A stretch of DNA of 32,000 bases, taken from contig NZ_CP042911.1 in NCBI RefSeq assembly GCF_008065095.1, positions 1,320,001 to 1,352,000 on the forward strand. The letters are read 5' to 3'. The position numbers and the translations under genes are program-made. The notes under the pieces were generated by a model, which was not told the DNA's origin, did not search any database, and saw only the letters and a program-made list of their open reading frames with translations. Numbering within the stretch: the first letter of the stretch is position 1; the number at the start of each line of letters is the position of its first letter. This document shows, piece after piece, positions 11,701 through 28,499 of this stretch. The stretch comes from Gemmata obscuriglobus. Lineage in GTDB: Bacteria; Planctomycetota; Planctomycetia; Gemmatales; Gemmataceae.

Positions 11701-13890
11701 CATGTGCCCGATGATCGGGTTCTGCCAGTCGATGAAGTACAGCGCGCCGTCCGGCCCGGTCTTCGCGTCCACCGGGCGGAAGTTCGGGTCGCTGCTGCTG
11801 AGGATCGGCTCCTGCTCCTGGCCCGTGATGCTCCCGCCCAGGTCCGAGAGGCGGTACCGCAGGATGCCCTGGAACCCGATGCAGTTGGTGACGATCAGGT
11901 TCCCCTCCCAGTCCGCCGGGAAGTGCTGGCTGGAGAGGATCTCGATGCCGCCGCACGGCCGGGTGCGCTGCTGGTACACCTGCGGGGTGCGGCCGTGCTT
12001 CTGCGGGTACGGCAGGTGGCCGCTGAACAGCGCGGCGTGGTACGGGTTCGCGCCGGTGCCGTCCACGACGATGTCCTGGCCCCACTTGTCGAACACGTGC
12101 CCGTGCGGGTTGGCGAACCCGTAGGTCACGTACACGTCGAACTTCTGGGTGCGCGGCTCGTACCGGAACACGGCCCCGTTGGCGACCCGCTTCACCGGCC
12201 CGTAGGGGTCTTCGACCTGCGAGTGGTGGAACGTCCCTTCCTGGAAGTAGACCGCGCCGCCCGGGTCGAGGGCGAAGCTGTTGGAGGTGTGGTGCGTGTC
12301 CGCGGTGTCGAGGCCGTGGAGGACGCGCTCGCGCACGTCGGCCTTGTCGTCACCGTTGGTGTCCTTGAGGAACACCAGCTCCGGCGCCTGGGCGACGAGC
12401 ACCCCGCCGTTGTAGAACTCGAACCCGGTCGGGTTCTGGAGCCCGCCGGCGAACTCGGTCATCTTGTCGGCCTTGCCGTCGCCGTCGGTGTCCTCGAAAA
12501 TCAGGAGCTTGTCGTTGTACGGCTCGCCCGGCTTCCAGTGCGGGTAGCTGGGCCACACCGCCACCCACAGCCGGCCCTTCGCGTCCCACGCCATCTGCAC
12601 CGGCTTCGCCAGCTCCGGCCACTTCTCCTCGCTGGCGAACAGTTGGACCTTCAGCCCCTTGCCGATCGTCATCTTCTGAATGGCCTCTTCACCCGAGAGG
12701 AAGAGGTGCGTGCCGTTCGGGCCGGCGCCGGGCTTGTTGGTCGTGACCGGCACCTCTTTGGGCAGGTTGCTGTCGTCGGGCTTCGCCTCCTGCCCCTTCG
12801 CCGCGGCCCAGATCACCTTGTCGCGGTTGGCGGTCATCACGTCGAGCCGTTCCAGCTCCTTCTGCACCACCTCGTAGTTGCTCTGCCCGCCGACGAACTT
12901 GAGCCACGCCCGGCCGCCGTAAGTGGAGTAGCCGTCGGTGACGCGGTACCGCTGGTACCAGTGGAACGCCTTGTCCTGTACCGCCGGGCGGAGCTTCTCA
13001 AACAGCTTCTCGTCCAGCTTCCCTGCACCCGGGAAGAGGCCCCCATCGATCACTTTGGCGAGAAGCTGGTGCCCGCTTTCGGCCAGGTGAATGCCGTTGA
13101 TGGTGAACCGGGGGGTGTGCCAAGCTGGCGCCGCAACGGTGCCCTCGTACAGCGCTTTCATTGGCGCGAACAGATCGACGAAATGAACTCCGTTCGCTTT
13201 CGCCACTTCGGAAATGGCGCCGGTGTACAGCTCCAGGTTCTTGTTGATCGCGACGACCGCTTCGCCTGTCGGCAGGTTCGGCGACTTGTGGTCCTCGAAC
13301 GCGATCGGCGAGAACAGCACCAGCCGCGGGGCCGACTTGCCGTTGTATTTCTGGGCCAGCGTGTGCTTGACGAACGCTTCGAGGTCGCTCTTGAACTTCG
13401 GCAGGCCGGCCTCGCCGGCCCACGACTCGTTGTAGCCGAAGAAGGCGAAGATCACGTCGGCGTTGGTGCCGGCCTTCTCGAACCGGTTCGGGTTCACGAC
13501 GCTCTTGTCCGCGACCAGGTTCGGCTTCGGCACCGGGGCCTTGGCGGCGAGCCACTGGTCCGGGGTGCCGAAGTCCTCGCTCCGCAGCCGCAGCCCCGGC
13601 TCGTCGCCGGAGTAGCCCAGGTTGCGGACCGTGAGGTCGAGGTCCGGGTTGCGGGCGTACAGGAACGTCTCGACCCAGCCGTCGTGCTGCATCCGGTCGG
13701 CGAGGGTGTTGCCGATGATGCAAACGTGGTCGCCCTTTTCGAGCTTGAACGGCCCGGGGGCCGCGGCGGTCGTGGTGGTCGCGCCGGCCGCCGCGGGCGC
13801 GGGCGTGCCGGCCGGGCGTTTGAGCGCGAGCAGCACCGCCGCCGACCCCAGCACGAGGCCGACGGCGAGGAGAGTGCGGCCGACAGGCAT
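8746..13890 (-). CDS. PVC-type multidomain heme/copper protein (SGNH-like + beta-propeller dehydrogenase-like + HEAT repeats + F5/8-type-C + cupredoxin + cytochrome c)
   Basis: About 1,714 aa from ATG 13890 (GGAG 8 nt upstream; alternative start 14010). TM/signal LLAVGLVLGSAAVLLAL. Discoidin-like GRYVRIELPGKQRTLTLAEVQVFSEG...DDPWWEVDLG. Type-1 copper ligands MPHNFVI...YVCTYPGHWRRMHG. C-terminal heme motif CVACHKFGG. Confidence 0.9.
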   Translation of the reverse strand: MPVGRTLLAVGLVLGSAAVLLALKRPAGTPAPAAAGATTTTAAAPGPFKLEKGDHVCIIGNTLADRMQHDGWVETFLYARNPDLDLTVRNLGYSGDEPGLRLRSEDFGTPDQWLAAKAPVPKPNLVADKSVVNPNRFEKAGTNADVIFAFFGYNESWAGEAGLPKFKSDLEAFVKHTLAQKYNGKSAPRLVLFSPIAFEDHKSPNLPTGEAVVAINKNLELYTGAISEVAKANGVHFVDLFAPMKALYEGTVAAPAWHTPRFTINGIHLAESGHQLLAKVIDGGLFPGAGKLDEKLFEKLRPAVQDKAFHWYQRYRVTDGYSTYGGRAWLKFVGGQSNYEVVQKELERLDVMTANRDKVIWAAAKGQEAKPDDSNLPKEVPVTTNKPGAGPNGTHLFLSGEEAIQKMTIGKGLKVQLFASEEKWPELAKPVQMAWDAKGRLWVAVWPSYPHWKPGEPYNDKLLIFEDTDGDGKADKMTEFAGGLQNPTGFEFYNGGVLVAQAPELVFLKDTNGDDKADVRERVLHGLDTADTHHTSNSFALDPGGAVYFQEGTFHHSQVEDPYGPVKRVANGAVFRYEPRTQKFDVYVTYGFANPHGHVFDKWGQDIVVDGTGANPYHAALFSGHLPYPQKHGRTPQVYQQRTRPCGGIEILSSQHFPADWEGNLIVTNCIGFQGILRYRLSDLGGSITGQEQEPILSSSDPNFRPVDAKTGPDGALYFIDWQNPIIGHMQHNLRDPSRDRTKGRIYKVTYDGRQPSQAPKISGEKTEELVKLLAHPEDRVRARAKIELGARDSKEVLQLAMLDLMMRQGATNFNRNAEADEHFQLEVLWLHQYHNVVDTALLKQVLQSKDFRARAAAVRVLCYWRDRVPDSLELLKKLAGDAHPRVRLEAVRAASFYTVPEAAEVVFVAQDRPADQFVEHVAKETMRALDPIVKKAIADKRPIKFTTPAGARYFLKSVATDDLLKMDRTPAVYLELLFRPGVRDEFRREALAALAKQDQKPELAVLVNVITQHDESAATEESVAFDLARLLTSRPQAELAAARAELAGLAQKGRTATTRQMGHVALIAADGAVEQAWAAATKSVGALTDFINAAPMVRDPGARAALYPKVKELLTALPPELAKTVAAGKSVSGRYVRIELPGKQRTLTLAEVQVFSEGANAALKGKATQSSTGAGGAAGRAIDGKTSGAYNDGTSTHTQEGTDDPWWEVDLGREVPVETVVVWNRTDGNLGSRLNNFVVRVLDADKRTVFQAVKNPAPKDKAEFKVGSGSPDRVIRRAAMFALATVRGQEADAFKAIAKFLGDEGDRAAAVQALLRIQSRDWPKDEAQATLDVVLKYIRSLPVAERTAPTALDFMQLGESLAALLDPAAAKAARKELADIGVRVIRVGTLFDQMSYDKERFVVAAGKPVEFVFENTDIMPHNFVIVAPGNLEKVGAAAEAFATTPAAAAKQYVPDMPSGVVLLKSKLLQTRQSEQLKFAAPKEPGIYPYVCTYPGHWRRMHGALYVVADLEAYQENPEAYLAKNPLPVKDDLLKFNRPRTEWKLEELADAVQEMEMKGGRNFANGRQMFTVATCVACHKFGGQGNEFGPDLAKLDPKVFKTAADVLDHILEPSKRIDDKYAAHRFVLNDEKALVGMIVEEKDGVVKVIENPLASAKPREIKRADIAEQKKAPTSMMSKGLLDKLSRDEVLDLVAYVWSRGDPKSKFFGAGHDH

Positions 13891-14033
13891 AGAGCGTCTC
13901 CGAAAAGCGGCGTTGAGGAGCGATTTCGGGTAGGAGAGGTTTGTTGTACCAGACGCGACGGGCGGGGGAAACGGGAACTGACGCGCGGCCGTCTTCACGG
14001 CCGCGCGCACCGGGTCCTCAGAAACGAGGGGCG

Positions 14034-14567
14034 TTAGCGGAAGCTGTCGGGGTTCAACGCGGCCCGGCGGCGCTGGTACGCGGCGTAAGCCCGACCAAAC
14101 GCCTGAGCCTTAACGATTTCTCGGACGCTCTTTTTGATGCCGTAAGCGGCAACCCCGATCCCGATCAGCGGGAAGAGCACCTTGGCCAGAACGAACGGTC
14201 CGTTGGACGGAAATTGGCTCGTAATTCCAAACGCCATTGCGGTCCAGAACCCGCCGAACACGCCGACGGCGATCGCGGCACTGAACCCCTCACCTGTGGT
14301 TGGGGCGTACTGCCGCCCGTCCTTCGCGGTCACCAAGTGCCGCTCCCGCTCCTGCTCCCACTCTCGGTCGATGCGCTCGATCGCGTCCCGGTAGCGAGTC
14401 GCCGCGCGGTGCCGCGCCTGGGCCTCGGCCACCGGATCGGGCCGCGGTTCCGGCGCGGGTCCCAGTTGTGCCAGGATTGCGGCCTTTGCGTGCGCGAACT
14501 CCGTGTCCGTCAGGGTGCCGTTCCAGCGCAGCCCTTCGAGCTTTTTCAACTCGTCCGCGATGCTCAC
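14034..14567 (-). CDS. Membrane protein with N-terminal SHOCT-like motif
   Basis: GTG start overlaps the upstream TGA (GTGA at 14564-14567). ADELKKLEGLRWNGTLTDTEFAHAKAAIL resembles SHOCT. Two hydrophobic helices (AAIAVGVFGGFWTAMAFGI, VLFPLIGIGVAAYGI). Confidence 0.6.
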   Translation of the reverse strand: MSIADELKKLEGLRWNGTLTDTEFAHAKAAILAQLGPAPEPRPDPVAEAQARHRAATRYRDAIERIDREWEQERERHLVTAKDGRQYAPTTGEGFSAAIAVGVFGGFWTAMAFGITSQFPSNGPFVLAKVLFPLIGIGVAAYGIKKSVREIVKAQAFGRAYAAYQRRRAALNPDSFR

Positions 14568-17880: not shown

Positions 17881-18134
17881 CCGCGCCGGGGCGGCAACAA
17901 TCGCCGGATTAATTGCAGTCGCGATGAGACAGTCGATCGAACACACGTGGGCCTGTCCGCGTTAGCTCGGAGTTTGTTGCGGGGTGGGTCACCAACCTCG
18001 GCCGAACGAATGGGCGGCGCGGCGGATCGGATGGGTGGGGCCGGGCGAAGGTCCGTGACCCCGGATAGTCGAGTGCGGTTCACGCGTGGGTGTGATCGGC
18101 GGTGACGTGGGACCCGGTGCCGGACCGGGCCGTG

Positions 18135-18196
18135 GGTGTTGTCGTGCCCGCACGCGGCCCAGCGAGGGCGGGGGCCGGTGCGGGCACGACAACACC
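18135..18196. repeat. Perfect 19-bp-stem hairpin next to the array end
   Basis: GGTGTTGTCGTGCCCGCAC / GTGCGGGCACGACAACACC with a 24-nt loop. Confidence 0.4.
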
Positions 18197-18198
18197 AC

Positions 18199-18226
18199 AG
18201 AAAACGAGCGGGAAAACAATCGCTCG
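18199..18226 (-). terminator. Putative intrinsic terminator closing the cassette array (minus strand)
   Basis: The minus strand reads CGAGCG attgttttcc CGCTCG TTTTCTG, about 25 nt downstream of the last attC-like repeat. Confidence 0.45.
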
Positions 18227-18251
18227 TACATTTGACCGGTACGCGGCTTCA

Positions 18252-18341
18252 TAGTCATACACAGTTCACCTGCACCGCCATGATACAGTGAGCGACACAA
18301 CTATGGCCGATGGCGGTGTCAGGTGCAGCGCCGGGTTCGGC
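18252..18341 (-). repeat. attC-like repeat 1 (array-terminal, outer R box lost)
   Basis: CACCTGCACCGCC ... GGCGGTGtCAGGTGcAGCGCCGGGTTCGGC is intact. The left R box is TAGTCAT instead of GCCGAAC. Loop type b (..GTGAGCGACACAAC..GATGG). Confidence 0.6.
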
Positions 18342-18687
18342 TCGCTCACCTCCGCGGTTCCGGGCGATACGCTTCGCACCGCGCATCCGCGGAGCCCGGG
18401 CCACCGGTGCGGCTCTGCGGAGCACCACCGACCCCACGCGCCGTGTCCCGGCACATCGGAGACCACCCACCACCGACACCCGCGGCGGCGAGCCGCGCCG
18501 ACCACCGACGGGCGCCACGCGGAGCACCACCGACCCGCAATCACCGTGTCCCCGCCCGCAACCGGCCACGCCCAACCGCCACTCGCGGCGACGAGCCGCG
18601 CGGGCCATCGGCGGGGACCACACGACCGTCTGACCCGACGCGGACCACACCGTCAGCGCCGCACGCGCCCTCATGCGGCTTGGGGTG
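18342..18687. repeat. Low-complexity ORF-less cassette, copy A
   Basis: 346 bp, C/A-rich and T-poor on the + strand. GGAGCACCACCGACC recurs at 18419 and 18521 (102-nt period). Homologous to copies B-F. Confidence 0.7.
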
Positions 18688-18778
18688 GCCGAACATAAAG
18701 CTCACCTGCACCGCCATCATCGGATGAGCGATGCGTTCCAGATCAGCGGGCGGTGTCAGGTGCAGCGCCGGGTTCGGC
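18688..18778 (-). repeat. attC-like repeat 2
   Basis: 91 nt: GCCGAACATAAAGCTCACCTGCACCGCC-[loop a]-GGCGGTGTCAGGTGCAGCGCCGGGTTCGGC. Confidence 0.8.
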
Positions 18779-18783
18779 CGATG

Positions 18784-19274
18784 CTACTCCCGCCCCAACC
18801 CGATTACGAGGTGACACCATTCCTGGATCTCAGGCTCATTGGGTGACCGTCGGAAGATGGCATAATACCGGCCCCCGTCCGAGCCTTCTACCAGGTAGCA
18901 CACACCATCTACCCCGTAGTCCGAAACCAGCACGGGCTGTGACCACAGCGATAGATGGCCAGCGCCCGCTCGACCTCGGCAGACTCTACGGCGGTCAATC
19001 CACGCTCCTCGAACTCCTGCGGCTGGTCTATGGCCGCGTCCTGAGGCAAGAACCCTCGCCTGCGGGTCACCCGCCACCCGCTCGCGGCGACTTCCAACCG
19101 GATGCTGCACCGGCGGCCCCAGGTCGGCTCGGCGTAGAGCCGGTATGCCCGCACCCCATCGCCACGGGGGAGCGGCAACTCGCCCATCGCCCGCAGCATG
19201 GTGGCAAGCCCGTGTGACACCTTCTCGGGGTTGCACAGGTCGGGCGGCCACGGCAATCCCGAGAAGTACTCCAT
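18784..19274 (-). pseudogene. Cassette ORF, orphan, interrupted by a 1-nt frameshift
   Basis: ATG 19274 (AGAGG upstream) reads MEYFSGLPWPPDL...ERALAIYRCGHSP and stops at 18909. The protein-like continuation PVLVSDYGVDGVCYLVEGSDGGRYYAIFRRSPNEPEIQEW... is in another frame and runs to TAG 18784. The shift lies in the C run near 18925-18935. Confidence 0.6.
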
Positions 19275-19289
19275 CTGTGTACCTCTGGT

Positions 19290-19380
19290 GCCGAACAATA
19301 AGCTCACCTGCACTGCCAGGATCGAGTGAGCAACACAACGCAGATCAGATGGCGGTGTCAGGTGCAGCGCCGGGTTCAGC
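19290..19380 (-). repeat. attC-like repeat 3
   Basis: 91 nt, loop type b. The right R box is GTTCAGC (1 mismatch) and the L box is CACCTGCACTGCC. Confidence 0.75.
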
Positions 19381-19424
19381 ATTTTGGGCCGGCCGGGTAA
19401 CTTGCTAAGCCAGGACACACCGCC

Positions 19425-19823
19425 TCATTCGAGTGGCCTCAAGACCAACGGGGGGAACCGCCCTGGCTCGAAACGCTCGGCCTGTCCGACGATTCGCATG
19501 TGGTCCTCGTGTTCGCTGATCTGATCGACCGTTGCGATCACCCACTCCCAGTGGCGCACCTCGGGAGACGGGGAGCACTTCGACAATGCGCCCAACCAGA
19601 ACCGAACGCTCATTGAGCCGAGATTCTCCAATTCTGACCTAAGGAACTCCGGCAAGTTCGGTGATTCAGCCTGGTCTTCACCCCAATCGAAGACATCAGC
19701 CCACAATGATCGGGGCACAACGACCTCATACCCCGTCGGTTGAAAGGGGCGCGTCTTCAGTTTAACCCACGCGGCCTTGAAGGGAACAGCGGTGCCACCG
19801 ATGGTGAAGGACGGTGTTTGCAT
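19425..19823 (-). CDS. Cassette ORF, hypothetical (132 aa)
   Basis: ATG 19823 is 5 nt after GGAGG and 14 nt after repeat 4. It has its own TGA 44 nt before repeat 3. Lower GC than the surroundings. Confidence 0.65.
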   Translation of the reverse strand: MQTPSFTIGGTAVPFKAAWVKLKTRPFQPTGYEVVVPRSLWADVFDWGEDQAESPNLPEFLRSELENLGSMSVRFWLGALSKCSPSPEVRHWEWVIATVDQISEHEDHMRIVGQAERFEPGRFPPLVLRPLE

Positions 19824-19836
19824 CGCACCTCCGGCC

Positions 19837-19926
19837 GCCGAACAGAAAGCTCACCTGCACCGCCAGGATGGAGTGAGCGACACAACGGCGGCTGATGGCG
19901 GTGTCAGGTGCAGCGCCGGGTTCGGC
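19837..19926 (-). repeat. attC-like repeat 4
   Basis: 90 nt, loop type b. Confidence 0.8.
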
Positions 19927-20286
19927 TCGCTCGCCTCCGCGGTTCCGGGCGACACGCCGAGCTTGGCGCATCCGCGGAACCCGCGGCACCGGTGCGGCCG
20001 AGCGGAGCCCCACCGACTCGAATCGCCGTGTCGCGGCCCACCGGTGGCCACCCATCACCGCACCTCGCGGCGACGAGCCGCGCCCGCCCTGACGCGCGCC
20101 ACGCGGAGCACCACCGACCCGAACCGCCGTGTCCCCACCCGCACCCCGGCCACGCCCAACCACACCTCGCGGCGACGAGCCGCGCCCGCCCCGACCGGCA
20201 CCACGCGGAGCCACCACCGACGCGTGGGCGTCACCTTCGCGGACCACACGCCCACCACCGCACGCGCGATCCAGAACGCGAAGGTG
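19927..20286. repeat. Low-complexity ORF-less cassette, copy B
   Basis: 360 bp. GCGGAGC.. unit starts at 20002, 20103 and 20205 (101/102-nt period). Confidence 0.7.
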
Positions 20287-20377
20287 GCCGAACATAAAGC
20301 TCACCTGCACCGCCATCACACGATGAGCGGTGCGTCACAAGTCAGCGGGCGGTGTCAGGTGCAGCGCCGGGTTCGGC
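20287..20377 (-). repeat. attC-like repeat 5
   Basis: 91 nt, loop type a. Confidence 0.8.
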
Positions 20378-20733
20378 TCGATGCCCTCGGCGGTTCGGGG
20401 TCGCACGCCGAGCGCCGCGCATCCGCAGAGCCCGCGGCACCGACGCGGCTGGGCGGAGCACCACCGACCCGACGCGCCGTGTCCCGGCACACCGGAGGCC
20501 GCCCACCACCGCACCTCGCGGCGATGAGCCGCGCCGACCACCCACGGGCCACACGCGGAGCACCACCGACCCGCACCGCCGTGTCCCGACACATCGGAGG
20601 CCACGCCCAACCGCAAGCTCGCGGCGATGAGTCGCGCCAGACCCGACCGGCACCACGCGAAGCCCGACGCGCGCGGTTCACCACCGCGGACCACACGCAC
20701 ACCGCCGCACGCGCGCTCCTGCACGCGATGGTT
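20378..20733. repeat. Low-complexity ORF-less cassette, copy C
   Basis: 356 bp. Unit starts at 20453, 20555 and 20657 (102-nt period). About 25 T in 356 nt by hand count. Confidence 0.7.
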
Positions 20734-20824
20734 GCCGAACATAAAGCTCACCTGCACCGCCATCATACGATGAGCGGTGCGTTCCAAGTCAGCGGGCGGT
20801 GTCAGGTGCAGCGCCGGGTTCGGC
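20734..20824 (-). repeat. attC-like repeat 6
   Basis: 91 nt, loop type a. Confidence 0.8.
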
Positions 20825-20831
20825 GCTGCGT

Positions 20832-21316
20832 TTACTGCCCATCCGGCTGCCTGTTGCGCATGTGCGCGAACAATTTGGGGTATGGGAGGTCCACACGGTT
20901 CCAATCCGCGTAGCAGGCGGTGAGCCCGCAGGCCACGCACCGGCACCCGATATACACCCAGCGCACGTCCTCGCTGCCTTCGTACAGTGAAGCCCCGACC
21001 GTGATCTCGTAGTGCGTTGGCCCGCGCTCGGTACAAGGGCACCCGCAGCACTCGGTGTCGGCCCCAGGGTCACCCTCATAGTAGCCGTCGATGTTACGGT
21101 CGTGGGACAGGTAGTGGGCGCCGCACGCCTTGCAGAACCACGCGCCTCGCCATACTCCTCGTCGATCTGCAGCGAGAACACCCGGCCACTGCAGTCGCAC
21201 ACCGCGTCGGCAAAGACTGTGAGCGGGTCGGCCTTGCCGCAGGTGCGGGTCAGCACCTCACGGATGTCCGCGGCGGTGTCGCCGTACCAGAACTCGCCCC
21301 GCTCCCGGATCGCCAC
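20832..21316 (-). pseudogene. Cassette ORF, Cys-rich (zinc-ribbon-like) protein interrupted by a 1-nt frameshift
   Basis: GTG 21316 (AGGAG 9 nt upstream) reads AIRERGEFWYGDTAADIREVLTRTCGKADPLTVFADAVCDCSGRVFSLQIDEEYGEARG. The sensible continuation AWFCKACGAHYLSHD...CCGCPC...CRCVACG...RQPDGQ* is in another frame (switch near 21140-21150). Confidence 0.6.
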
Positions 21317-21333
21317 GCCATGCGTCTCCTGCT

Positions 21334-21424
21334 GCCGAACATAAAGCTCACCTGCACCGCCATCACCCGATGAGCGATGCGTCACAACTCCGCGGGCGGT
21401 GTCAGGTGCAGCGCCGGGTTCGGC
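21334..21424 (-). repeat. attC-like repeat 7
   Basis: 91 nt, loop type a. Confidence 0.8.
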
Positions 21425-21470
21425 TTCTGCGACCCCCGCGCCGTGCATTTGCGGGGCGGGGCCAGCCGGC

Positions 21471-21725
21471 CTACAAGGATGGACGCGGCGGGTCGGGCCA
21501 GTTGGCCTCAGACTCGCACTCACGCTGGTACTCCCGCCACGACCGCAACCCTTGGGCCCGCCGCTTGGCGTTGCCCTTGCGCCGCCGCCGCTCCTCGCAC
21601 CGCTTGGTGAACTCGTCGTGCCAGCGGTACTCGTACATCACGTTCGCCGACCGGACGTACTTGCGGAACCTCCGCAGGGCCGACGTGAGCGACTCGCCCT
21701 CGCAGACCTCCACTCGGACACCCAT
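21471..21725 (-). CDS. Cassette ORF: ribosomal protein bS21-like paralogue (84 aa)
   Basis: MGVRVEVCEGESLTSALRRFRKYVRSANVMYEYRWHDEFTKRCEERRRRKGNAKRRA lines up with bS21 (MPxIxV.E.ES.E.ALRRFKR...E.R.RE.YEKP.E.RKR...A.KR). Confidence 0.7.
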   Translation of the reverse strand: MGVRVEVCEGESLTSALRRFRKYVRSANVMYEYRWHDEFTKRCEERRRRKGNAKRRAQGLRSWREYQRECESEANWPDPPRPSL

Positions 21726-21777
21726 CGCTATGCGGCTTGTACGGCTGCCGCGACGCCGGTTGAAAGAGCTTTCTGGG

Positions 21778-21868
21778 GCCGAACAAATAGCTCACCTGCA
21801 CCGCCATCACCGGATGAGCATTGCGTCCCGAATCAGATGGCGGTGTCAGGTGCAGCGCCGGGTTCGGC
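21778..21868 (-). repeat. attC-like repeat 8
   Basis: 91 nt, loop type a. Confidence 0.8.
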
Positions 21869-22165
21869 ATCTGTAGCGGCTGCGGTGAAGCGACCGCCCT
21901 GGAACCCGAGCCGCAACGGCGCCCAGCCCGCGGTTGATGGCCAGCCCAGCGACGCCGCGAACCGCACCGCTTCGGCCACGAACCGGGGCGTGACCACGTG
22001 AGGCTCGGCCCCCGGCCCGTCCGGCTCTAGCCAGTCCCGCCAGCCCCAATCGACGTAGAACTGGGGGCCGCTGCGGTCGCCCGGGATGACGACCAACACG
22101 TCGTTGAACCGCCAGCGGAACGGCCGGCCGTCAACCACGATCCGCCGTAGTGGTCCCCACCCCAT
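21833..22165 (-). CDS. Cassette ORF, hypothetical (110 aa), stop codon supplied by the attC-like repeat
   Basis: ATG 22165. MGWGPLRRIVVDGRPFRWRFNDVLVV...GWPSTAGWAPLRL. It reads in frame into repeat 8 (...TDAEPGAAPDTAI*). The IS3 element is inserted 13 nt upstream of the ATG. Confidence 0.6.
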   Translation of the reverse strand: MGWGPLRRIVVDGRPFRWRFNDVLVVIPGDRSGPQFYVDWGWRDWLEPDGPGAEPHVVTPRFVAEAVRFAASLGWPSTAGWAPLRLGFQGGRFTAAATDAEPGAAPDTAI

Positions 22166-22243
22166 CGTGCGCCCCGGTTATAGTGGACCCCGAAAACTGG
22201 ACCGCCGGTTAAGCTATACCGGAGGCCCAGGAAAGGGGAACCC

Positions 22244-22531
22244 ATGGCGGGCAAGCGGAAGAGTCACTCGGCGGCGTTCAAGGCCCAGGTCGCGCTGGCG
22301 GCCCTCAAGGGCGACAAGACCATCAACGAACTGGCGAGTCAGCACGGCGTCCACCCGACCCTGATTCATGGGTGGAAGAAGCAGTTGCTCACCGGGGCCG
22401 AGGCCGTGTTCGCCTCGGGGGCGAAGGGCACCGGCCCCCCGGAAGACAAGACGACCGAGTTGTACGAGCAGATCGGCCGCCTCAAGGTGGAACTCGACTG
22501 GGTGAAAAAAAAATCGGCCGCCCTCGGCTGA
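22244..22531 (+). CDS. IS3-family transposase OrfA (HTH)
   Basis: MAGKRKSHSAAFKAQVALAALKGDKTINELASQHGVHPTLIHGWKKQLL. Coiled-coil tail. An A9 run (22505-22513) lies near the 3' end. Confidence 0.85.
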   Translation: MAGKRKSHSAAFKAQVALAALKGDKTINELASQHGVHPTLIHGWKKQLLTGAEAVFASGAKGTGPPEDKTTELYEQIGRLKVELDWVKKKSAALG

Positions 22532-22601
22532 GGCCAAGCGTGCCCGGATCGAGGCCGAGCACCCGGAGCTGAGCGTCCGGCGCCAGTGCGAGCTGATCGG
22601 A

Positions 22602-23372
22602 TTGAACCGCTCGACGGTGTACTACGAGCCGACCCCGGAGAGCGCGGAGAACCTGACGCTGATGCGGTTGATCGACGAGCAGTACACGACGTGCCCGTTC
22701 TACGGGAGCCGGCGCCTGGCCGCGTGGCTGGGCACCCAGGGCCACGAGGTGAACCGCAAGCGGGTGCAGCGGCTGTTGCGGATCATGGGGTTGGAGGCCC
22801 TGTACCCCAAGCCCAAGCTGTCGGTCGGGTCCGGGCACAAGGTGTACCCGTACCTGTTGCGGGGCGTGGCCATCGACCGGGTCCATCAGGTGTGGAGCAC
22901 GGACATCACGTACATCCCGATGCCCACCGGGTTCATGTACCTGGCCGCAACGATGGACTGGTTCAGCCGGTACGTGGTGGCCTGGCGACTGTCCAACACG
23001 TTGGACGGGTCATTCTGCCAGGACATGCTGGAGGAGGCCTTGGGCCGGGGCAAGCCGGAGGTGTTCAACACGGACCAGGGAGTCCAGTTCACGGCCGCCG
23101 CGTGGGTCGGGCGATTGGAGCGGGCCGGGGTCGCGGTGAGCATGGACGGGCGGGGCCGGTGCCTGGACAACGTGTTCGTGGAGCGCCTGTGGCGGAGCGT
23201 CAAGTACGAGGACGTGTACCTCAAGGGTTACGAGTCGGTGCCGGCCCTGGAGAGTGGGCTCCGGGCGTACTTCGGGTTCTACAACACCGAGCGGTTACAC
23301 CAGTCCCTGGACTACCGCACCCCGGCTCAGGTGTATGGCGTCGGAGCCACGAAGGCCCCGACGAAACAGTAG
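22602..23372 (+). CDS. IS3-family transposase OrfB (rve/DDE integrase core)
   Basis: The frame is open from 22506. HPELSVRRQCELIGLNRSTVYYEP...VWSTDITYIPM...FNTDQGVQFTA...MDGRGRCLDNVFVERLWRSVKYE (D, D, E blocks). It is in the +1 frame relative to orfA. Confidence 0.85.
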   Translation: MNRSTVYYEPTPESAENLTLMRLIDEQYTTCPFYGSRRLAAWLGTQGHEVNRKRVQRLLRIMGLEALYPKPKLSVGSGHKVYPYLLRGVAIDRVHQVWSTDITYIPMPTGFMYLAATMDWFSRYVVAWRLSNTLDGSFCQDMLEEALGRGKPEVFNTDQGVQFTAAAWVGRLERAGVAVSMDGRGRCLDNVFVERLWRSVKYEDVYLKGYESVPALESGLRAYFGFYNTERLHQSLDYRTPAQVYGVGATKAPTKQ

Positions 23373-23425
23373 CGAAGGATAGCAACTTTTTGGTCTAGAC
23401 AATGGGGTCCACTGTAGGCCCTCCC

Positions 23426-23515
23426 GCCGAACGAACAGCTCACCTGCCTGCCCCGTCGGAGGACGCGCCGGGCGCCACGTTAGCGGGGCAGGTCAGGTGC
23501 AGCGCCGGGTTCGGC
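23426..23515 (-). repeat. attC-like repeat 9 (divergent L box)
   Basis: 90 nt. GCCGAACGAACAGCTCACCTGCCTGCCCC ... GGGGCAGGtCAGGTGCAGCGCCGGGTTCGGC. The L-box change is compensated on both arms. Confidence 0.75.
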
Positions 23516-23588
23516 CTCTTGGGGGATGTAGTCCAGAAACACCGGTTGGTGCTCTTGAACCACGAAGTCCCAACAGTACCGCTCGGTG

Positions 23589-23969
23589 TCATTGTTGGGC
23601 GGACTCAAAGGCTGCGATGACGTGATCGATGTCTCTGGGGATCGGGCGAGGGAGCTGCCCGTGTGGCGCTGGGTCGATGCAAACGTGCTGGGTTCCATTT
23701 TCTCTGGCCCTTCGCAGGTAGTAAGTGGCTTCGTGCCGGGTGTACGGTCTGAATCCCGCAAGACCTGGCACGGTGCCGATGTGGTCTTGGGCGAAACGTT
23801 CCGCGAGATCGCTGTCACTGAAGAGTGGCAGCATACGCCCGGCACGTGATCCGTCGGCCACGAGGTCTACGGTGAAAAGTCTTGGCGGATCACCGTGGAC
23901 CATGAACCACGGCAGCCCGATGAGAACGAAAACATTCGGCGATTTGGCCGACTCTTCACCCATTTGCAT
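23589..23969 (-). CDS. Cassette ORF, hypothetical (126 aa; weak SseB-like flavour)
   Basis: ATG 23969 or 23963 after GGAAGG. ...RMLPLFSDSDLAERFAQDHIG... It has its own TGA. GC is clearly lower than in neighbouring cassettes. Confidence 0.6.
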   Translation of the reverse strand: MQMGEESAKSPNVFVLIGLPWFMVHGDPPRLFTVDLVADGSRAGRMLPLFSDSDLAERFAQDHIGTVPGLAGFRPYTRHEATYYLRRARENGTQHVCIDPAPHGQLPRPIPRDIDHVIAAFESAQQ

Positions 23970-23989
23970 TACCTTCCGTTGACTTCAGT

Positions 23990-24079
23990 GCCGAACGGAC
24001 AGCTCACCTGCACCGCCATGCCCCCTTTAGGCTCGCACCTGCTGACGATGGCGGTGTCAGGTGCAGCGCCGGGTTCGGC
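23990..24079 (-). repeat. attC-like repeat 10 (unique loop)
   Basis: 90 nt. Standard R and L boxes with loop ATGCCCCCTTTAGGCTCGCACCTGCTGACGATGG. Confidence 0.8.
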
Positions 24080-24088
24080 GGATTGGGA

Positions 24089-24790
24089 TCAGGGCATGCT
24101 TGATGACTGCGGAGCGGCTTGGGTATTCGGTGTTTGTTTGTGCTTGTCAATCTCTGCGAAGTAGCGACCGCCGAAGAACGCCACGACCGAGGCGATGCCC
24201 GCGAGAAGGACTGTGGTAACTGCCGTGATGACCGCGAGACGCTTCTTGTAGCTGTAATCCTGAGCCGTTCGCTTCGATTCTTGCGACTCTTGCCACGCGC
24301 GGCGATCCTTCTCTTGGGCTTCTTGCCACTGGCGGTTCTTCTCATCCTTCTCGTCCTGCTTGCGGTCGCGTTCATTCTGCCACTGTCGCGCCTTCTCGGC
24401 TTCGGCGGCTTGGTGAGCGCGGTTTTTGTCGGCTTCGGTCGCGTTCTTCTCTTGCACTTCTCGCGCGACCTCTCTTGCGGTAATCATTTCGGCATGCTCC
24501 TTTGGACTGTGCCCAGATTCAAATGCACAGTAATCGGAACATGCTCGCTCTGAGTTGATGGCGGCTACATACGATTTCTGCTTGTCCCGCGTATCCTCGA
24601 ACTGGCGTTTGTAATCCTCTTCGGGTCCGGCGTGGCCGTGGAAACAGAACGGCGAATGTCGAGCACCAGGAAAAGAGGTTGACTTGCCGGTGCGGCGCCA
24701 CTCCAAGTCAACGAGCTTCAACTCGGGGTCGTGATCCACTTTCCCGGAGAGGAACCCACAGTTAGCGCATCGGACCTTGGGCGATTCCAT
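24089..24790 (-). CDS. Cassette ORF: zinc-ribbon / charged coiled-coil / C-terminal TM protein (233 aa)
   Basis: ATG 24790 after AGAGGGG. CANCGF...FCFHGH. EAEKARQWQNERDRKQDEKDEKNRQWQEAQEKDRRAWQESQE. TM helix LAVITAVTTVLLAGIASVVAFFGG. The most AT-rich cassette in the array. Confidence 0.7.
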   Translation of the reverse strand: MESPKVRCANCGFLSGKVDHDPELKLVDLEWRRTGKSTSFPGARHSPFCFHGHAGPEEDYKRQFEDTRDKQKSYVAAINSERACSDYCAFESGHSPKEHAEMITAREVAREVQEKNATEADKNRAHQAAEAEKARQWQNERDRKQDEKDEKNRQWQEAQEKDRRAWQESQESKRTAQDYSYKKRLAVITAVTTVLLAGIASVVAFFGGRYFAEIDKHKQTPNTQAAPQSSSMP

Positions 24791-24810
24791 CCGCGCATTC
24801 CCCTCTGGTT

Positions 24811-24901
24811 GCCGAACATAAAGCTCACCTGCACCGCCATCATCGGATCAGCGATGCGTTCCGAATCAGCCGGCGGTGTCAGGTGCAGCGCCGGGTTCGG
24901 C
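24811..24901 (-). repeat. attC-like repeat 11
   Basis: 91 nt, loop type a. Confidence 0.8.
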
Positions 24902-24906
24902 GTGCC

Positions 24907-25311
24907 TTATTGGGCGTCGCGGGCCTCCTGCCGCAGCTCCGCCAGATACACCTCGAAGCTGCCGTACCGCTCCTCGACCTCGTGGGCCTCGTGTTGGTAG
25001 AACCCGACACCCCACATGGCACCACCGCGGTCCACGAACCAGTAGTCCCCAGCCCCGTTGGTGCCGACGACGAGGTAGCTCGCTGGCCACGGCTCCTCGT
25101 CCTCACCAACGGTCATCCAGGCCGCCCGCTGCCGCGCCGCCAAATTCTCTCGGATGATGGCATCCGCGTCGGTCCACAGCACAGCGCGTTGCGGGAGGGT
25201 CGCCTTGATCCGGCGAACTTCGTCAGCGTGGCGGCGGAGGAAGTCGCGGTACTCGCCGGGCAGCGGATGGCCGAGCGCCGACTCGATCCGGGCAACCTCG
25301 GCTTCGCCCAT
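24907..25311 (-). CDS. Cassette ORF: SMI1/KNR4 (SUKH-1) family immunity-type protein (134 aa)
   Basis: ATG 25311 is 8 nt after GGAGGG. VARIESALGHPLPGEYRDFLRRHA ... YLVVGTNGAGDYWFVD ... SFEVYLAEL. Confidence 0.75.
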   Translation of the reverse strand: MGEAEVARIESALGHPLPGEYRDFLRRHADEVRRIKATLPQRAVLWTDADAIIRENLAARQRAAWMTVGEDEEPWPASYLVVGTNGAGDYWFVDRGGAMWGVGFYQHEAHEVEERYGSFEVYLAELRQEARDAQ

Positions 25312-25328
25312 CCGAGAGCCCTCCGGGT

Positions 25329-25419
25329 GCCGAACGAACAGCTCACCTGCACCGCCATCACCGGATGAGCGGTGCGTCACAAGTCAGCGGGCGGTGTCAG
25401 GTGCAGCGCCGGGTTCGGC
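25329..25419 (-). repeat. attC-like repeat 12
   Basis: 91 nt, loop type a. Confidence 0.8.
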
Positions 25420-25753
25420 TCGCTCACATCCGCGCCGCGCATCCGCGGATGCCCGCCCACCGGTGCGACCGGGCGGAGCACCACCGAACCACGGCGCCGT
25501 GTCCCGACACATCGGGGGCCACCCACCACCGCCACACGCGGCGATGAGCCGCGCCCGCGACCGATCGGTCTCAGCGGAGCACCACCGACCCGCACCACCG
25601 TGTCCCCATCCGCACCCGGCCACAACCACCGCAAGCTCGCGGCGACGAGCCGCGCCAGCCCCAACCGGCACCACGCGAAGCCCGACGCGCGCGGTTCACC
25701 ACCGCGGACCACACGCACACCGCCGCACGCGCGCCCTCATGCACGCGATGGTT
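25420..25753. repeat. Low-complexity ORF-less cassette, copy D
   Basis: 334 bp. Unit starts at 25473, 25574 and 25675 (101-nt period, not a multiple of 3). Confidence 0.7.
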
Positions 25754-25844
25754 GCCGAACATAAAGCTCACCTGCACCGCCATCACCCGATGAGCGGTGC
25801 GTCACAAACGAGCGGGCGGTGTCAGGTGCAGCGCCAGGTTCGGC
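25754..25844 (-). repeat. attC-like repeat 13
   Basis: 91 nt, loop type a. Confidence 0.8.
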
Positions 25845-25845
25845 A

Positions 25846-26091
25846 CTACAGCGTCTCGATCCAGTTGGCGCGGCCTGTGGTGGTGCTCACGCACACGGGC
25901 CAAGTGCCCGGCGTGTCGAACGCGATGGTGCCGTCGCCCAGGTCGAGCGGTTCGGGCACCAGATGCACCACCCAGGTCTGCCCGCCGTCCCGCGACAGCA
26001 CGTCGCCGACCCGCTCGACCTTCTGGTACGGACTCGGCGGGTCGTCCGAGGCCAACCTCAGTGCCATCGCAACGGCTTCGTCACGGCCCAT
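25846..26091 (-). CDS. Cassette ORF, hypothetical (81 aa)
   Basis: ATG 26091 after AGAGGG. TAG lies 1 nt before repeat 13. Confidence 0.55.
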   Translation of the reverse strand: MGRDEAVAMALRLASDDPPSPYQKVERVGDVLSRDGGQTWVVHLVPEPLDLGDGTIAFDTPGTWPVCVSTTTGRANWIETL

Positions 26092-26109
26092 CCGCTACGC
26101 CCTCTGGTG

Positions 26110-26263
26110 GCCGAACTTCGGAGCTCAGGCGCGCGCGGCTGGATAAAGCTGCGCTCCCGAGCCGCGACCGCGCGTCGCCTGCAGCGTCTGGTTCGGCGGC
26201 GCATCACACTTCGCAGGCTTTGCGAGGATGTGACGCACCCCGCGCCTGAGCTACGAGGTTCGG
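26110..26263 (-). repeat. attC-like repeat 14, sequence-unrelated 'twin-arm' variant (154 nt)
   Basis: The left arm GCCGAAC-TTCGG-AGCTCAGGCGCGCGCGG pairs either with the inner arm CCGCGaCCGCGCGtCGCCTGcAGC-GTCTG-GTTCGGC (ends 26197, bulged) or perfectly with the outer arm CGCGCCTGAGCT-ACGAG-GTTCGGC (ends 26263). Confidence 0.65.
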
Positions 26264-26407
26264 CCTGGTCGCGCCGAGCCCCGAGTTCGCGGGACCACCA
26301 CCCCGGGCCGGGTTCCGGGGCGGCGCCGTCGCGCTTGGGAGGGGGGCGACGGGTCCCCACACTGTGCCGCACCGGAACCCGCGGTTGCAGAGAACCGGCG
26401 CGACCAG
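26264..26407 (-). other. ORF-less mini-cassette (144 bp) with terminal 12-bp inverted repeat
   Basis: CTGGTCGCGCCG (26264-26275) pairs with CGGCGCGACCAG (26397-26408). No credible ORF or SD. Confidence 0.5.
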
Positions 26408-26498
26408 ACCGAACGAACAGCTCACCTGCACCGCCATCACCGGATGAGCGGTGCGTCACAAGTCAGCGGGCGGTGTCAGGTGCAGCGCCGGGTTCGGC
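26408..26498 (-). repeat. attC-like repeat 15
   Basis: 91 nt, loop type a. The left R box is ACCGAAC. Confidence 0.75.
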
Positions 26499-26506
26499 CT
26501 CGCCAC

Positions 26507-26857
26507 CTACACCCGGAAGAGGCGAGCCGCGATGGCCGCAACCGCGCCGACCTGCTCCGTGGGTACGAAGATAGTGAACCGCGTAGTGCGATATCTCCGC
26601 CCGCGGAACTCAGCGAAGTATCGCACCCCAATACGGGCCATCTCTTGGTCGAACAGGTAGATGTTGTGCTCTGCGGTCTCGCGGAACACGCCTGCGTACT
26701 CGACAGCCCCAACCGGCTGGGGCAACTCAGCGACCGACCCGACCATGTGTTGCGCGCGGCGCTGCCACGCGCCCACCGGCCTCTTCTTGCGGGCTCCGCC
26801 GGGGCGGCCGGGCCAACGTCGGGCGCCCTTACCGCGACTTCGTGGCGAACGGCACAT
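26507..26857 (-). CDS. Cassette ORF, hypothetical (116 aa)
   Basis: ATG 26857 after AGAGG. The Arg-rich N-terminus is doubtful. The C-terminal half (VEYAGVFRETAEHNIYLFDQEMARIGVRYFAEF...) looks protein-like. Confidence 0.5.
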   Translation of the reverse strand: MCRSPRSRGKGARRWPGRPGGARKKRPVGAWQRRAQHMVGSVAELPQPVGAVEYAGVFRETAEHNIYLFDQEMARIGVRYFAEFRGRRYRTTRFTIFVPTEQVGAVAAIAARLFRV

Positions 26858-26877
26858 CTGAAGTCTGCGCCTCTGTA

Positions 26878-26990
26878 GCCGAACATACAGCTCACCTGCC
26901 CGGCCGGGATCGCAACCAGCCTACACGAAGGCGCGGTGAGCGACACGAAACAAATCACGTGGCCGGGTCAGGTGCAGCGCCGGGTTCGGC
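26878..26990 (-). repeat. attC-like repeat 16 (113 nt, divergent L box)
   Basis: CACCTGCCCGGCCGGG ... GGCCGGGtCAGGTG. Compensatory change relative to the modal CACCGCC/GGCGGTG. Confidence 0.75.
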
Positions 26991-27383
26991 CGCGGTCTGC
27001 CCGCAAATGGGGCAATACATGCGCCCGCCCCGACCCTCCGAAACGCGCATGTTCACAAGCCATCTGTGGTAACAGCAACCCAAGGCCTTTGCCGCTGTGG
27101 TGTGGGCCGAGCCCCCGACATCGGACGTGTCGCGAATCTCGGACAAGGCCTTCCGGAGCCGCACCAACTCGTCCTCCATCCGGCACAGGTGCTCGATCAG
27201 GTTCACCGTCCAACGGGACTCGTACTCGCCCGGGACGTGCACGTCGAATGTACGGGGATTGGCCGCGGTCGCCACCTCCACCCACGATGACGTGTCGAAG
27301 CAGATGCTCCAACTGCCCTTGGAGTAGTCGGCTTGTTGGCCGCCCTCCGTCCAACCTCGGGCTTTCAGTTCATCGGCGAACAT
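26955..27383 (-). CDS. Cassette ORF, hypothetical (142 aa), stop supplied by the attC-like repeat
   Basis: ATG 27383. ...CCYHRW...MYCPICGQTA then an in-frame AEPGAAPDPAT* tail from repeat 16. Confidence 0.6.
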   Translation of the reverse strand: MFADELKARGWTEGGQQADYSKGSWSICFDTSSWVEVATAANPRTFDVHVPGEYESRWTVNLIEHLCRMEDELVRLRKALSEIRDTSDVGGSAHTTAAKALGCCYHRWLVNMRVSEGRGGRMYCPICGQTAAEPGAAPDPAT

Positions 27384-27422
27384 CGGCTACTAGCGCCCAC
27401 CTGAGGCGCTCTCCGCGGGGTG

Positions 27423-27513
27423 GCCGAACAAATAGCTCACCTGCACCGCCATCACCGGATAAGCGGTGCGTCCCAAGTCAGACGGCGGTGTCAGGTGCAG
27501 CGCCGGGTTCGGC
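27423..27513 (-). repeat. attC-like repeat 17
   Basis: 91 nt, loop type a. Confidence 0.8.
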
Positions 27514-27930: not shown

Positions 27931-27945
27931 CCGCGGCCCTCTGGT

Positions 27946-28035
27946 GCCGAACAAATAGCTCACCGGCCGCGCACGCCGCGACACGGTCTACCGAGTGCGT
28001 AGTTTACAGCGGTCCGGTGCAGCGCCGGGTTCGGC
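27946..28035 (-). repeat. attC-like repeat 18 (CACCGGCCGC subtype)
   Basis: 90 nt. AGCTCACCGGCCGC ... GCGGtCCGGTGCAGCGCCGGGTTCGGC. Confidence 0.75.
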
Positions 28036-28041
28036 GGGCCT

Positions 28042-28482: not shown

Positions 28483-28499
28483 CGCCTAAGCCCTCTCTT

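Follow-up and report, generated by a model that had tools for sequence, protein, structure and literature searches.

The window analysed here, a stretch of 32,000 nt of Gemmata obscuriglobus (contig NZ_CP042911.1, assembly GCF_008065095.1, forward strand 1,320,001-1,352,000), was found to contain six homologous units of 334-360 nt apiece, each filling one inter-attC slot, and the locus raises the question of what such a repeated unit is, and what it does, within an integron cassette array. Copy A (18342-18687, 346 nt) was found to be the final cassette of the array, with the long type of 3′ tail, an attC boundary and an nhmmer E-value of 1.4e-74. It was followed by copy B (19927-20286, 360 nt), which was also found with nhmmer and bounded by attC, and by copy C (20378-20733, 356 nt), which lies immediately 5′ of B on the sense strand. 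Copy D (25420-25753, 334 nt) contained the short type of 3′ tail, and copies E (28590-28923, 334 nt) and F (30788-31122, 335 nt) contained the third type. All six copies were found on the minus strand. Their mutual homology and positions, as described in the original prediction, were recovered both in a six-way alignment (75% mean column identity) and with nhmmer (E-values of 1e-74 to 1e-87). For copy B, an identical cassette was found in this genome's other array (locus L020, 7712-8071).

The attC sites of the main type were 90-91 nt in length, and 24 of them were present in comparison with 0 expected by chance. The attC of copy C (20287-20377, minus strand, 91 nt, main type) was found between C and B, followed by the presence of the attC of copy B at 19837-19926 (minus strand, 90 nt). 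At its sense-upstream boundary, copy E was found to meet, at 28923, an attC whose sequence belongs to a second type (28924-29016), so the claim that every copy fills exactly one inter-attC unit holds for E as well.

The family was found to account for 39 of 125 sampled cassettes (~31%), with a copy at about every third cassette. In the complete genome CP025958.1, about 49 family cassettes were found among at least 148 attC sites in two arrays (at least 84 and at least 64 cassettes), and every family match in the loci scanned in that genome fell within these two arrays. The family was also found in three further Gemmata genomes, at least four in total. The original prediction had considered six such units unusual for a cassette array, and the wider sample makes the case more strongly. 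The orientation of the family matched that of attC in all 13 loci holding both (36 element matches), and all copies with available context were bounded by attC. The family is tied to attC sites and abundant, and its identity as an integron cassette is borne out by the attC boundaries and the fixed orientation. No match to the family profile was found in the non-array part of the window (1-18 kb), in L020 at 1-4.5 kb or in the flanks of L022 and L029, and with all copies attC-bounded, a generic dispersed satellite, which would have spoken against a cassette family, was not seen. Plasmid and viral contigs did not contain any match. Three pattern matches in metagenomes and the matches in non-Gemmata genomes (L002, L006, L011, L013 and L015) were not confirmed by the family profile and were set aside as chance. 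The reading of the family as gene-less integron cassettes specific to the cassette arrays of Gemmata is given a probability of about 0.9.

Family copies were found to occur in runs more often than by chance (17 adjacent pairs vs 11.4 ± 2.3, P = 0.012). Identity between copies was about 79% throughout, with a median of 78% within a genome, 78% between species and 80% between adjacent copies, so recent tandem duplication was rejected as the origin of the runs, adjacent copies being no closer than distant ones. Coding cassettes repeated in one genome were 100% identical. The units did not show any similarity to attC, and a derivation from attC was rejected; the attC profile found nothing in cassette interiors at E-values up to 10 with --max. 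In the 4.5 kb preceding array 1, no ORF contained an integrase domain and no Pc promoter was seen; the arrays may be integrase-less attC clusters (CALIN) or may be served by an intI sited elsewhere.

The family cassette, 333-361 nt in length, was found to open on the sense strand with a 5′ leader, which is followed by a partial unit, by two full tandem units (about 101 nt each), by a 3′ tail and by the attC. The tandem units of 101-102 nt claimed earlier were borne out by Tandem Repeats Finder (TRF), which gave a period of 101-103 nt and about two copies in A, B, C and E, and by the spacing of the unit hairpin, which gave a period of 100-105 nt at all loci. In copy C, the full unit that is 3′ on the sense strand was found at 20453-20554 (minus strand, 102 nt, TRF period 102), followed by the second full unit at 20555-20656 (minus strand, 102 nt, from TRF and the unit listing) and the partial third unit from 20657 to about 20700 (minus strand). 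The number of full units was variable, and variants with one or three units instead of two were found. The 3′ tails were of three types across the family. Copies E and F had been described as carrying a different leader from the other four; a different segment was indeed found in them, but read on the sense (minus) strand it is the 3′ tail.

Each unit contained one 6-bp GC hairpin with a 5-nt loop, the palindrome CGCGGC-N5-GCCGCG. This invariant hairpin was found in copy C at 20517-20533 (unit 1) and 20620-20636, and also at 18481-18497 and 18584-18600 in copy A, 20066-20082 and 20168-20184 in copy B, 25537-25553 and 25638-25654 in copy D, 28707-28723 and 28808-28824 in copy E, and 30905-30921 and 31006-31022 in copy F. 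Across the family 99-99.5% of cells were paired and 8 of the 12 pairs did not contain any variation. Changes on both arms of GCGGC-N5-GCCGC, on which the original prediction had drawn, were not found, the hairpin being essentially invariant. For a second hairpin, GTGTCCCGGCAC versus GTGCCGCGGCAC, the exchange of T-A for C-G was confirmed, but the pair was broken in most copies and the count did not exceed shuffled controls.

The sense motif G(G/C)GACACGG was found with its core GACACGG at 20477-20483 of copy C (minus strand, plus strand CCGTGTC), and this core was present once per unit in 12 of 12 full units of the window. The conserved sense block TCGGTGGTGCTCCGC (plus strand GCGGAGCACCACCGA) was found once per unit, at 20453-20467 in copy C (minus strand); with up to two mismatches allowed, 10 of the window's 12 units matched it. 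Across 58 units, blocks of 9-17 nt were invariant or nearly so and neighbouring positions varied freely, which supports the earlier suggestion that the family is constrained and under selection. Alternating purine/pyrimidine runs of at least 9 bases were found within the first 40 sense nucleotides in 47 of 57 cases.

The plus strand of the copies was found to contain 45-47% C and 7-8% T, in agreement with the earlier description of a C/A-rich, T-poor strand and with the roughly 25 T that it counted by hand in copy C. The sense strand contained 46% G and 8% A, and A was shunned even in variable alignment columns. The G+C content of the family was 76%, with a sense GC skew of +0.22 and an AT skew of -0.35. 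Third codon positions of the neighbouring cassettes were unskewed (GC skew -0.02, AT skew +0.03), so local mutation bias was rejected as the source and the strand skew is intrinsic to the family. The dinucleotides TA and GG had odds ratios of 0.27 and 0.79, respectively. A G-quadruplex on the G-rich strand, raised in the original prediction, was not supported, the motifs being depleted in comparison with shuffles: four-tract G3 motifs were found 0.22 times per copy (0.73 in shuffles) and the G4Hunter maximum was 1.46 (2.05 in shuffles). G-quadruplexes and the G-clusters of R-loops were rejected on this basis.

The family is non-coding. The lengths of 35 unique copies were distributed 10/15/10 over the three remainders of division by 3, and the copies differed by many indels, most of the alignment gaps being 1 nt long. 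The pN/pS ratio was about 1 over the six frames (range 0.4-9) without a consistent frame, and even when the most coding-like frame was chosen for each block, the ratio was 0.73 on the sense strand and 0.65 on the antisense strand. The positive control, an equally diverged domain of a coding cassette from these arrays, scored 0.36 in its true frame, and the other two frames scored 1.25 and 2.50. No period of 3 was found in the column variability of the family alignment. Coding cassettes were found to open with a CAGAGGG/GGAGG Shine-Dalgarno sequence followed by a start codon, as the original prediction had noted, and neither a conserved Shine-Dalgarno sequence nor a conserved start codon was found in the family. 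All six frames were nearly free of stops at about the rate predicted from composition; the long ORFs are artefacts of sequence poor in A and T, and the disbelief already expressed in them was justified.

As to what such cassettes do, a tentative reading is that repeated binding modules are displayed by the sense strand in single-stranded form, probably as RNA. What functions would be a single strand of defined polarity, most probably the G/U-rich RNA of the sense strand that array transcription yields, and instead of a global fold it would use short modules, one of each per unit. The candidate modules are the 6-bp GC hairpin with its 5-nt UCRYC loop, GGGACACGG and UCGGUGGUGCUCCGC. A host factor that binds nucleic acids may recognise these sites, and the RNA would then be its scaffold or sponge. 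With a makeup rich in G and poor in C and A, hundreds of untranslated nucleotides could cross an operon-like array without recruiting Rho or RNase E. We infer array transcription, RNA over single-stranded DNA as the active form, protein binding and Rho evasion from the modules and the composition. Read-through transcription is an assumption, since the 4.5 kb upstream of array 1 yielded neither an integrase nor a Pc promoter, and the conserved hairpin, being perfectly palindromic, would form on either strand.

An unlikely alternative is that the family consists of selfish or neutral gene-less cassettes whose interior is without host function, persisting because their attC is efficiently recombined and a short non-coding cassette is cheap. 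This would fit the very high copy number in both arrays, the clustering in runs, the variation of the unit number from 1 to 3 (as slippage-prone DNA should show) and the fact that no function could be assigned to the family. It does not account for interior blocks of 9-17 nt that stay near-invariant over 58 units despite variable flanks, nor for a skew that local mutation bias does not explain. Active copy-and-paste should also yield near-identical copies, as the duplicated coding cassettes are, whereas young copies were not in excess and identity was about the same within genomes, between species and between neighbours.

It is distinctly unlikely that the family acts at the level of DNA, with the palindromes, the skewed strand or the purine/pyrimidine leader modulating attC folding, recombination, supercoiling or replication, or with the 6-N5-6 palindromes as dimer operators. 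Strong conservation of pairing is confined to a perfect palindrome found twice per cassette, the fold stability at the alignment level was equal between strands, the alternating runs were concentrated at the sense 5′ end, and integron recombination acts on folded single strands. A double-stranded operator, however, would not need a strand skew over 340 nt; the units were unrelated to attC, G3 tracts and quadruplex motifs were below shuffle levels, and the enrichment of alternating runs was modest (10.4 vs 8.8 nt).

By analogy with the gene-less cassettes of Vibrio and Treponema, each copy could be a promoter cassette whose sense promoter would drive the downstream cassettes of very long arrays that may lack an integrase platform. 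This was judged improbable. Sense promoter activity was found in most of the gene-less cassettes tested from Vibrio chromosomal integrons (PMC11014356), and the spacing of the copies at about every third cassette and the lack of a visible integrase platform beside array 1 are consistent with such a role. The conserved GTGAAC and GGAACC, among the few motifs containing A, may resemble ECF-type -35 boxes. However, sigma-70-like sites numbered zero in 14 kb; TANNNT was found 4 times per strand in 35 copies (0.11 per copy) without a conserved position, and for the internal expression signal suggested in the original prediction a sigma-70-type promoter is unlikely, TA being almost absent (odds ratio 0.27). 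Neither a sigma-70 promoter nor an intrinsic terminator was found within the family, and both were rejected. The geometries of sigma-54 (TGGCAC-N5-TTGC) and ECF (GGAAC-N16/17-CGT) promoters, examined by eye, were also rejected, their spacing and conservation being unfitting. The distance from GGAAC to attC was 15 or 19 nt depending on the tail type, one tail type did not contain the motif, and four to five consecutive promoters would be redundant. The family contains 76% G+C, whereas the Vibrio authors tied promoter activity to AT-richness.

The lead of the original prediction, a structured RNA whose fold is defined and conserved (as in a riboswitch, a ribozyme or a large non-coding RNA), is now very improbable. 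Tandem units of some 100 nt have the size of an aptamer, local hairpins are present, and the consensus fold of the alignment was more stable than that of column shuffles (z = -5.7 and -6.5), similarly on both strands. Against this, no Rfam 15 family was found inside any copy with cmscan at the gathering threshold, and at E-values up to 5 across 18000-32000 there were three weak matches, all of them outside the copies; ARAGORN did not find any tRNA or tmRNA. The minimum free energy was not lower than that of dinucleotide shuffles (z = +0.36 and +0.37 for the two strands), the RNAalifold covariation term was -1.37 kcal/mol, and RNAalifold folded the two homologous units differently. The top mutual-information pairs did not contain any Watson-Crick helix, and the covariation measures of hand-drawn helices were reached by 40-469 of 500 shuffles, with power limited by the 76-77% identity and the sampling of a single genus. 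The helix GCCG-GGACA-CGGC of unit 1 was paired in 97.9% of cells and contained 19 G-U cells, tolerable on the sense strand only and so a sign of strand-specific constraint; this tolerance concerns one 4-bp helix that was not conserved in the other unit (74% paired). No covarying fold was seen in the family, and a global RNA fold was rejected for want of both excess stability and covariation.

A low-complexity protein gene, Arg/Gly/Trp-rich or Pro/His/Thr-rich, can be dismissed as extremely unlikely: long ORFs are present in each of the six frames and some were called by GenBank/Prodigal (e.g. C1280_11385 and a 414-aa gene spanning three copies), but the frames are stop-free as composition alone predicts, the lengths and indels break them, the pN/pS values, the absent period of 3 and the missing start signals differ from the coding control and cassettes, and only 2 related called proteins were found among 5.8 billion.

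Gene-less cassettes are a recognised, poorly understood part of integron arrays. To our knowledge, their only role tested so far is promoter activity, in AT-rich cassettes of Vibrio and Treponema, and integrons have hardly been studied in the planctomycete phylum. The closest comparison is with the gene-less cassettes of Vibrionaceae chromosomal integrons with promoter activity (Blanco et al. 2024, PMC11014356), of which 9 were found in V. cholerae N16961 and 29 over four species, the activity being tied to AT-richness; the same paper cites two Treponema cassettes. Like the Gemmata family, the Vibrio cassettes are attC-bounded, gene-free and interspersed in a large sedentary array, and both are proposed to act on the array and not to encode a product. 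They are few and AT-rich, whereas the Gemmata cassettes form one homologous family that makes up about a third of the cassettes and is 76% G+C, near TA-free, strand-skewed and tandem-repeated, without a sigma-70 motif.

If the Gemmata family acts as RNA, it resembles sRNA-Xcc1, an integron-cassette-encoded small RNA of Xanthomonas, in being a non-coding RNA borne on an integron cassette. It differs from sRNA-Xcc1, probably an Rfam family, in size and repeat architecture, and cmscan against Rfam 15 gave no match inside the array to this or any other family, even at E-values up to 5. The family resembles REP/BIME elements and MITEs in its non-coding nature, in the large number of diverged copies in a genome and in a GC-rich hairpin that is short and invariant. 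Unlike these, its copies are not dispersed but lie exactly between attC sites in matched orientation, lack terminal inverted repeats and contain 101-nt tandem units within 340 nt. The tandem repetition of a non-coding unit recalls type III antitoxin RNAs (ToxI-like), whose repeats of about 36 nt act as RNA by binding a protein; the Gemmata unit is 101 nt long, occurs 1-3 times per cassette and is not accompanied by a toxin gene in the cassette.

In the literature on integron cassettes of Gemmata and Planctomycetes, no description of the family was found. One GC-rich, TA-free and skewed family fills about one third of two arrays, with dozens of diverged copies over Gemmata species. Spurious proteins of up to 414 aa called across its units inflate the counts of 'hypothetical protein' cassettes. 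Possibly, though doubtfully, the Gemmata arrays depend for their function on the family as a dedicated non-coding part, acting as RNA or as a single-strand module that is inserted at about every third cassette and often in runs. Such a part could provide anti-polarity or antitermination across more than 80 cassettes, act as a scaffold titrating a host RNA- or DNA-binding protein, or control cassette recombination, and its conserved handles combined with variable segments could give each copy a specificity of its own. The function, if real, would be a new kind of non-coding integron component, and the many natural variants would make the family a ready system for testing the roles of non-coding cassettes.

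The integron-type cassette array was found to span from about 18.25 kb to the end of the window and contained 24 attC sites of 90-91 nt (plus-strand sequence GCCGAACATAAAGCTCACCTGCACCGCC...GGCGGTGTCAGGTGCAGCGCCGGGTTCGGC), where chance predicts none. A second attC type (GCCGAACCAGGAGCTGAGCTGCAAGCCGC...GGGGGGTTCGGC) was present at 28924-29016, followed by a partial attC up to 29076, and cassettes of a different attC lineage have therefore been mixed into the array. The cassette ORFs were found on the minus strand, each preceded by a CAGAGGG- or GGAGG-type ribosome-binding site, so that the minus strand is the sense strand. The window was 100% identical to ABGO01000017.1 and 99.99% identical to the complete genome CP025958.1 near 6.67 Mb. 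In that genome, the ORFs that precede the first attC site in array 1 (CP025958.1 2,786,661-2,791,196, positions 1-4536 of locus L020) gave no integrase-domain match, and the arrays may be clusters of attC sites that lack a neighbouring integrase.

The array end at about 18250 adjoined chromosomal genes for CobW and DUF1559 proteins and two cobalamin riboswitches. The two aptamers (2683-2887 and 4193-4396, plus strand; 96 and 98 bits) were nearly identical, lay 1.5 kb apart on either side of a DUF1559/N-methyl (pseudopilin-like) protein gene, and look like a local duplication; the second was located just 5′ of the ORF 4441-5637. At 8740-14037, ORFs of about 1750 aa were open on both strands, the real gene being the minus-strand ORF (DUF7133, HEAT, F5/8 type C, cupredoxin, cytochrome c). 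An IS110-family transposase gene (PF02371, PF01548; 16966-17880, plus strand) abutted the last attC of the array (18251-18341), which had lost its GCCGAAC...AGCTC end, an arrangement resembling the IS1111-attC group of insertion sequences, which target attC sites. On the plus strand, the 1557-nt 'cassette' at 21869-23425 encodes an IS3-family transposase (rve, HTH_21); it is an insertion sequence within the array, not a cassette gene.

The gene-less family was represented by copies A (18342-18687), B (19927-20286), C (20378-20733), D (25420-25753), E (28590-28923) and F (30788-31122), all with the minus strand as sense. Their alignment gave a mean column identity of 75% and the profile built from them recovered each copy with E = 1e-74 to 1e-87, in agreement with the original prediction of six mutually homologous copies. 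Each was found to fill exactly one inter-attC slot, as had been proposed, with the second attC type forming the right-hand (plus-strand) boundary of copy E. The predicted tandem units of 101-102 nt were recovered by TRF (periods of 101-103 nt, about two copies), with a unit spacing of 100-105 nt across the family, and the plus strand was C-rich and T-poor as described (45-47% C, 7-8% T). On the sense strand, a leader with a partial unit was followed by two full units and one of three alternative 3′ tails; a few copies differed in unit number (1 to 3). What had been described as a separate leader of copies E and F proved to be one of these tails.

In a pattern scan that took a single genome for each species, the family was limited to Gemmata, with matches across numerous G. 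algarum JC673 contigs and in one Gemmata MAG; the remaining genome matches and three metagenome matches were rejected by the family profile as chance, and there were no matches on viral contigs or plasmids. In a search of 5.8 billion proteins, two called 'hypothetical proteins', one from the second G. obscuriglobus array and one from Gemmata sp. JC717, led to further copies. By walking along assemblies, array 1 of CP025958.1 (2,791,196-2,835,929) was found to contain at least 84 attC sites and about 29 family cassettes, and array 2 (up to 6,682,097) at least 64 and about 20. Over non-redundant stretches the family accounted for 39 of 125 cassettes (31%), which bears out the view that its share is unusual for an array; the whole superintegron of V. 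cholerae N16961 contains nine gene-less cassettes (PMC11014356). Copies occurred in runs of 4-5 cassettes, and adjacent pairs numbered 17 against 11.4 +/- 2.3 by permutation (P = 0.012). The orientation relative to attC was constant in all 13 loci containing both (36 element hits) and no copies were found in the non-array flanks, so the family is tied to attC and is not a dispersed satellite.

The median identity was 78% for non-adjacent copies within one genome, 78% for copies from different species and 80% for adjacent copies, and the 3′ tail subtypes occurred in more than one species. Recurrent coding cassettes (24902-25328, 27514-27945, 29341-29764 and 31214-31498) were 99.8-100% identical to their counterparts in L020 whereas family copies were typically about 79% identical, except for B and D, which recurred at 99.7-100% in the other array. 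The contrast is striking, and together with the identities and the shared tails it shows the family to be an old, diversified and maintained pool, neither a recent duplication burst nor homogenised. A selfish or neutral cassette is the likeliest of the alternatives, itself improbable. Many cassettes encoded SUKH/SMI1_KNR4 or Barstar-type immunity proteins. A ribosomal protein S21 paralogue (TIGR00030, PF01165) was also found as a cassette (21471-21725, minus strand; 10001-10255 in the genome loci L026, L027 and L028), in four identical copies across the two arrays of CP025958.1.

Among 58 units, the blocks GGCGCGGCTC..CGCCGCGAG, GG(G/C)GACACGG and CGGGTCGGTGGTGCTCCGC were invariant or nearly so, separated by variable segments with 1-nt indels; no similarity of the units to attC was found. 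The nucleotide A was shunned even at variable columns, and the dinucleotide odds ratios were TA 0.27, GG 0.79, GT 1.44, TG 1.29 and CG 1.29. The sense strand was skewed (GC +0.22, AT -0.35) whereas third codon positions of neighbouring cassettes were not (-0.02 and +0.03), so the skew is a property of the family and not of local mutation pressure. Over the whole 340 nt it matters only for a single-stranded form, RNA or ssDNA. An element acting at the DNA level is somewhat less probable than a selfish cassette. Alternating, Z-DNA-prone runs were concentrated within the first 40 nt of the sense strand, although their enrichment was modest, and G-clusters of the G-quadruplex or R-loop kind were depleted relative to shuffles.

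A promoter cassette is slightly less probable again. Gene-less integron cassettes as such are already known, and those of Vibrio are AT-rich, with promoter activity tied by the authors to AT content (PMC11014356), whereas the Gemmata family was nearly free of TANNNT and contained neither a sigma-70 promoter nor an intrinsic terminator. The searched literature and Rfam yielded no single gene-less family in Planctomycetes that matches this one in abundance, composition and repeat architecture.

A defined structured RNA, as originally suggested, is unlikely, and no folded RNA could be demonstrated for the family. Searched against Rfam 15 both at the gathering threshold and with E relaxed to 5, the array yielded no match; ARAGORN found nothing, and copy C folded no better than dinucleotide shuffles (z = +0.36 and +0.37 for the two strands). 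RNAalifold on 23 copies gave a covariation term of -1.37 kcal/mol and different folds for the two homologous units; mutual information (58 units) tracked unit-type differences and alignment neighbours, not helices, and six hand-drawn helices with three alternatives did not exceed shuffled controls (35 copies). Column-shuffled alignments folded worse (z = -5.7 sense, -6.5 antisense), a strand-symmetric effect of conserved local palindromes. The sole robust structural element was a CGCGGC-N5-GCCGCG hairpin, once per unit, paired in 99-99.5% of cells, its loop (UCRYC) varying almost only by transitions; it had been listed among hairpins with changes on both arms, but 8 of its 12 pairs never varied. 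The hairpin GCCG-GGACA-CGGC was 97.9% paired in unit 1, with 19 G-U cells, and was not retained in unit 2.

A protein is very improbable and is rejected on frames, gaps, lengths and substitutions. The six frames were nearly stop-free at the rate predicted from composition, the 35 unique full copies (333-361 nt) were spread over length mod 3 as 10/15/10, single-nucleotide gaps were the majority, and 3-nt periodicity of column variability was absent. The pN/pS was scattered about 1 in all frames of all ungapped blocks, and even the most coding-like frame per block gave pooled values of 0.73 (sense) and 0.65 (antisense). In the positive control, a C-terminal domain from a coding cassette present in four loci (72-79% identity), the true frame gave 0.36 and the remaining frames 1.25 and 2.50. 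Neither a start codon nor a ribosome-binding site was conserved across copies, consistent with the reported lack of a Shine-Dalgarno sequence. The long ORFs across family copies, rightly doubted at the outset, are artefacts, among them a 378-aa ORF (19777-20913, plus strand) that is stop-free through copies B, C and attC sites, and a 414-aa called gene of the public assembly (locus L024, 4357-5601, minus strand) that crosses three family copies and attC sites.

The reading preferred here, tentatively and with a probability of roughly 0.3, is that of a non-coding cassette whose sense strand would be active in single-stranded form, most likely as RNA transcribed from the array, and would present a host factor with short recognition modules in two to three copies. 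Rut sites and the preferences of RNase E are well established; from composition we infer that the G-rich, C- and A-poor sense strand would suit an untranslated stretch avoiding Rho or RNase E.
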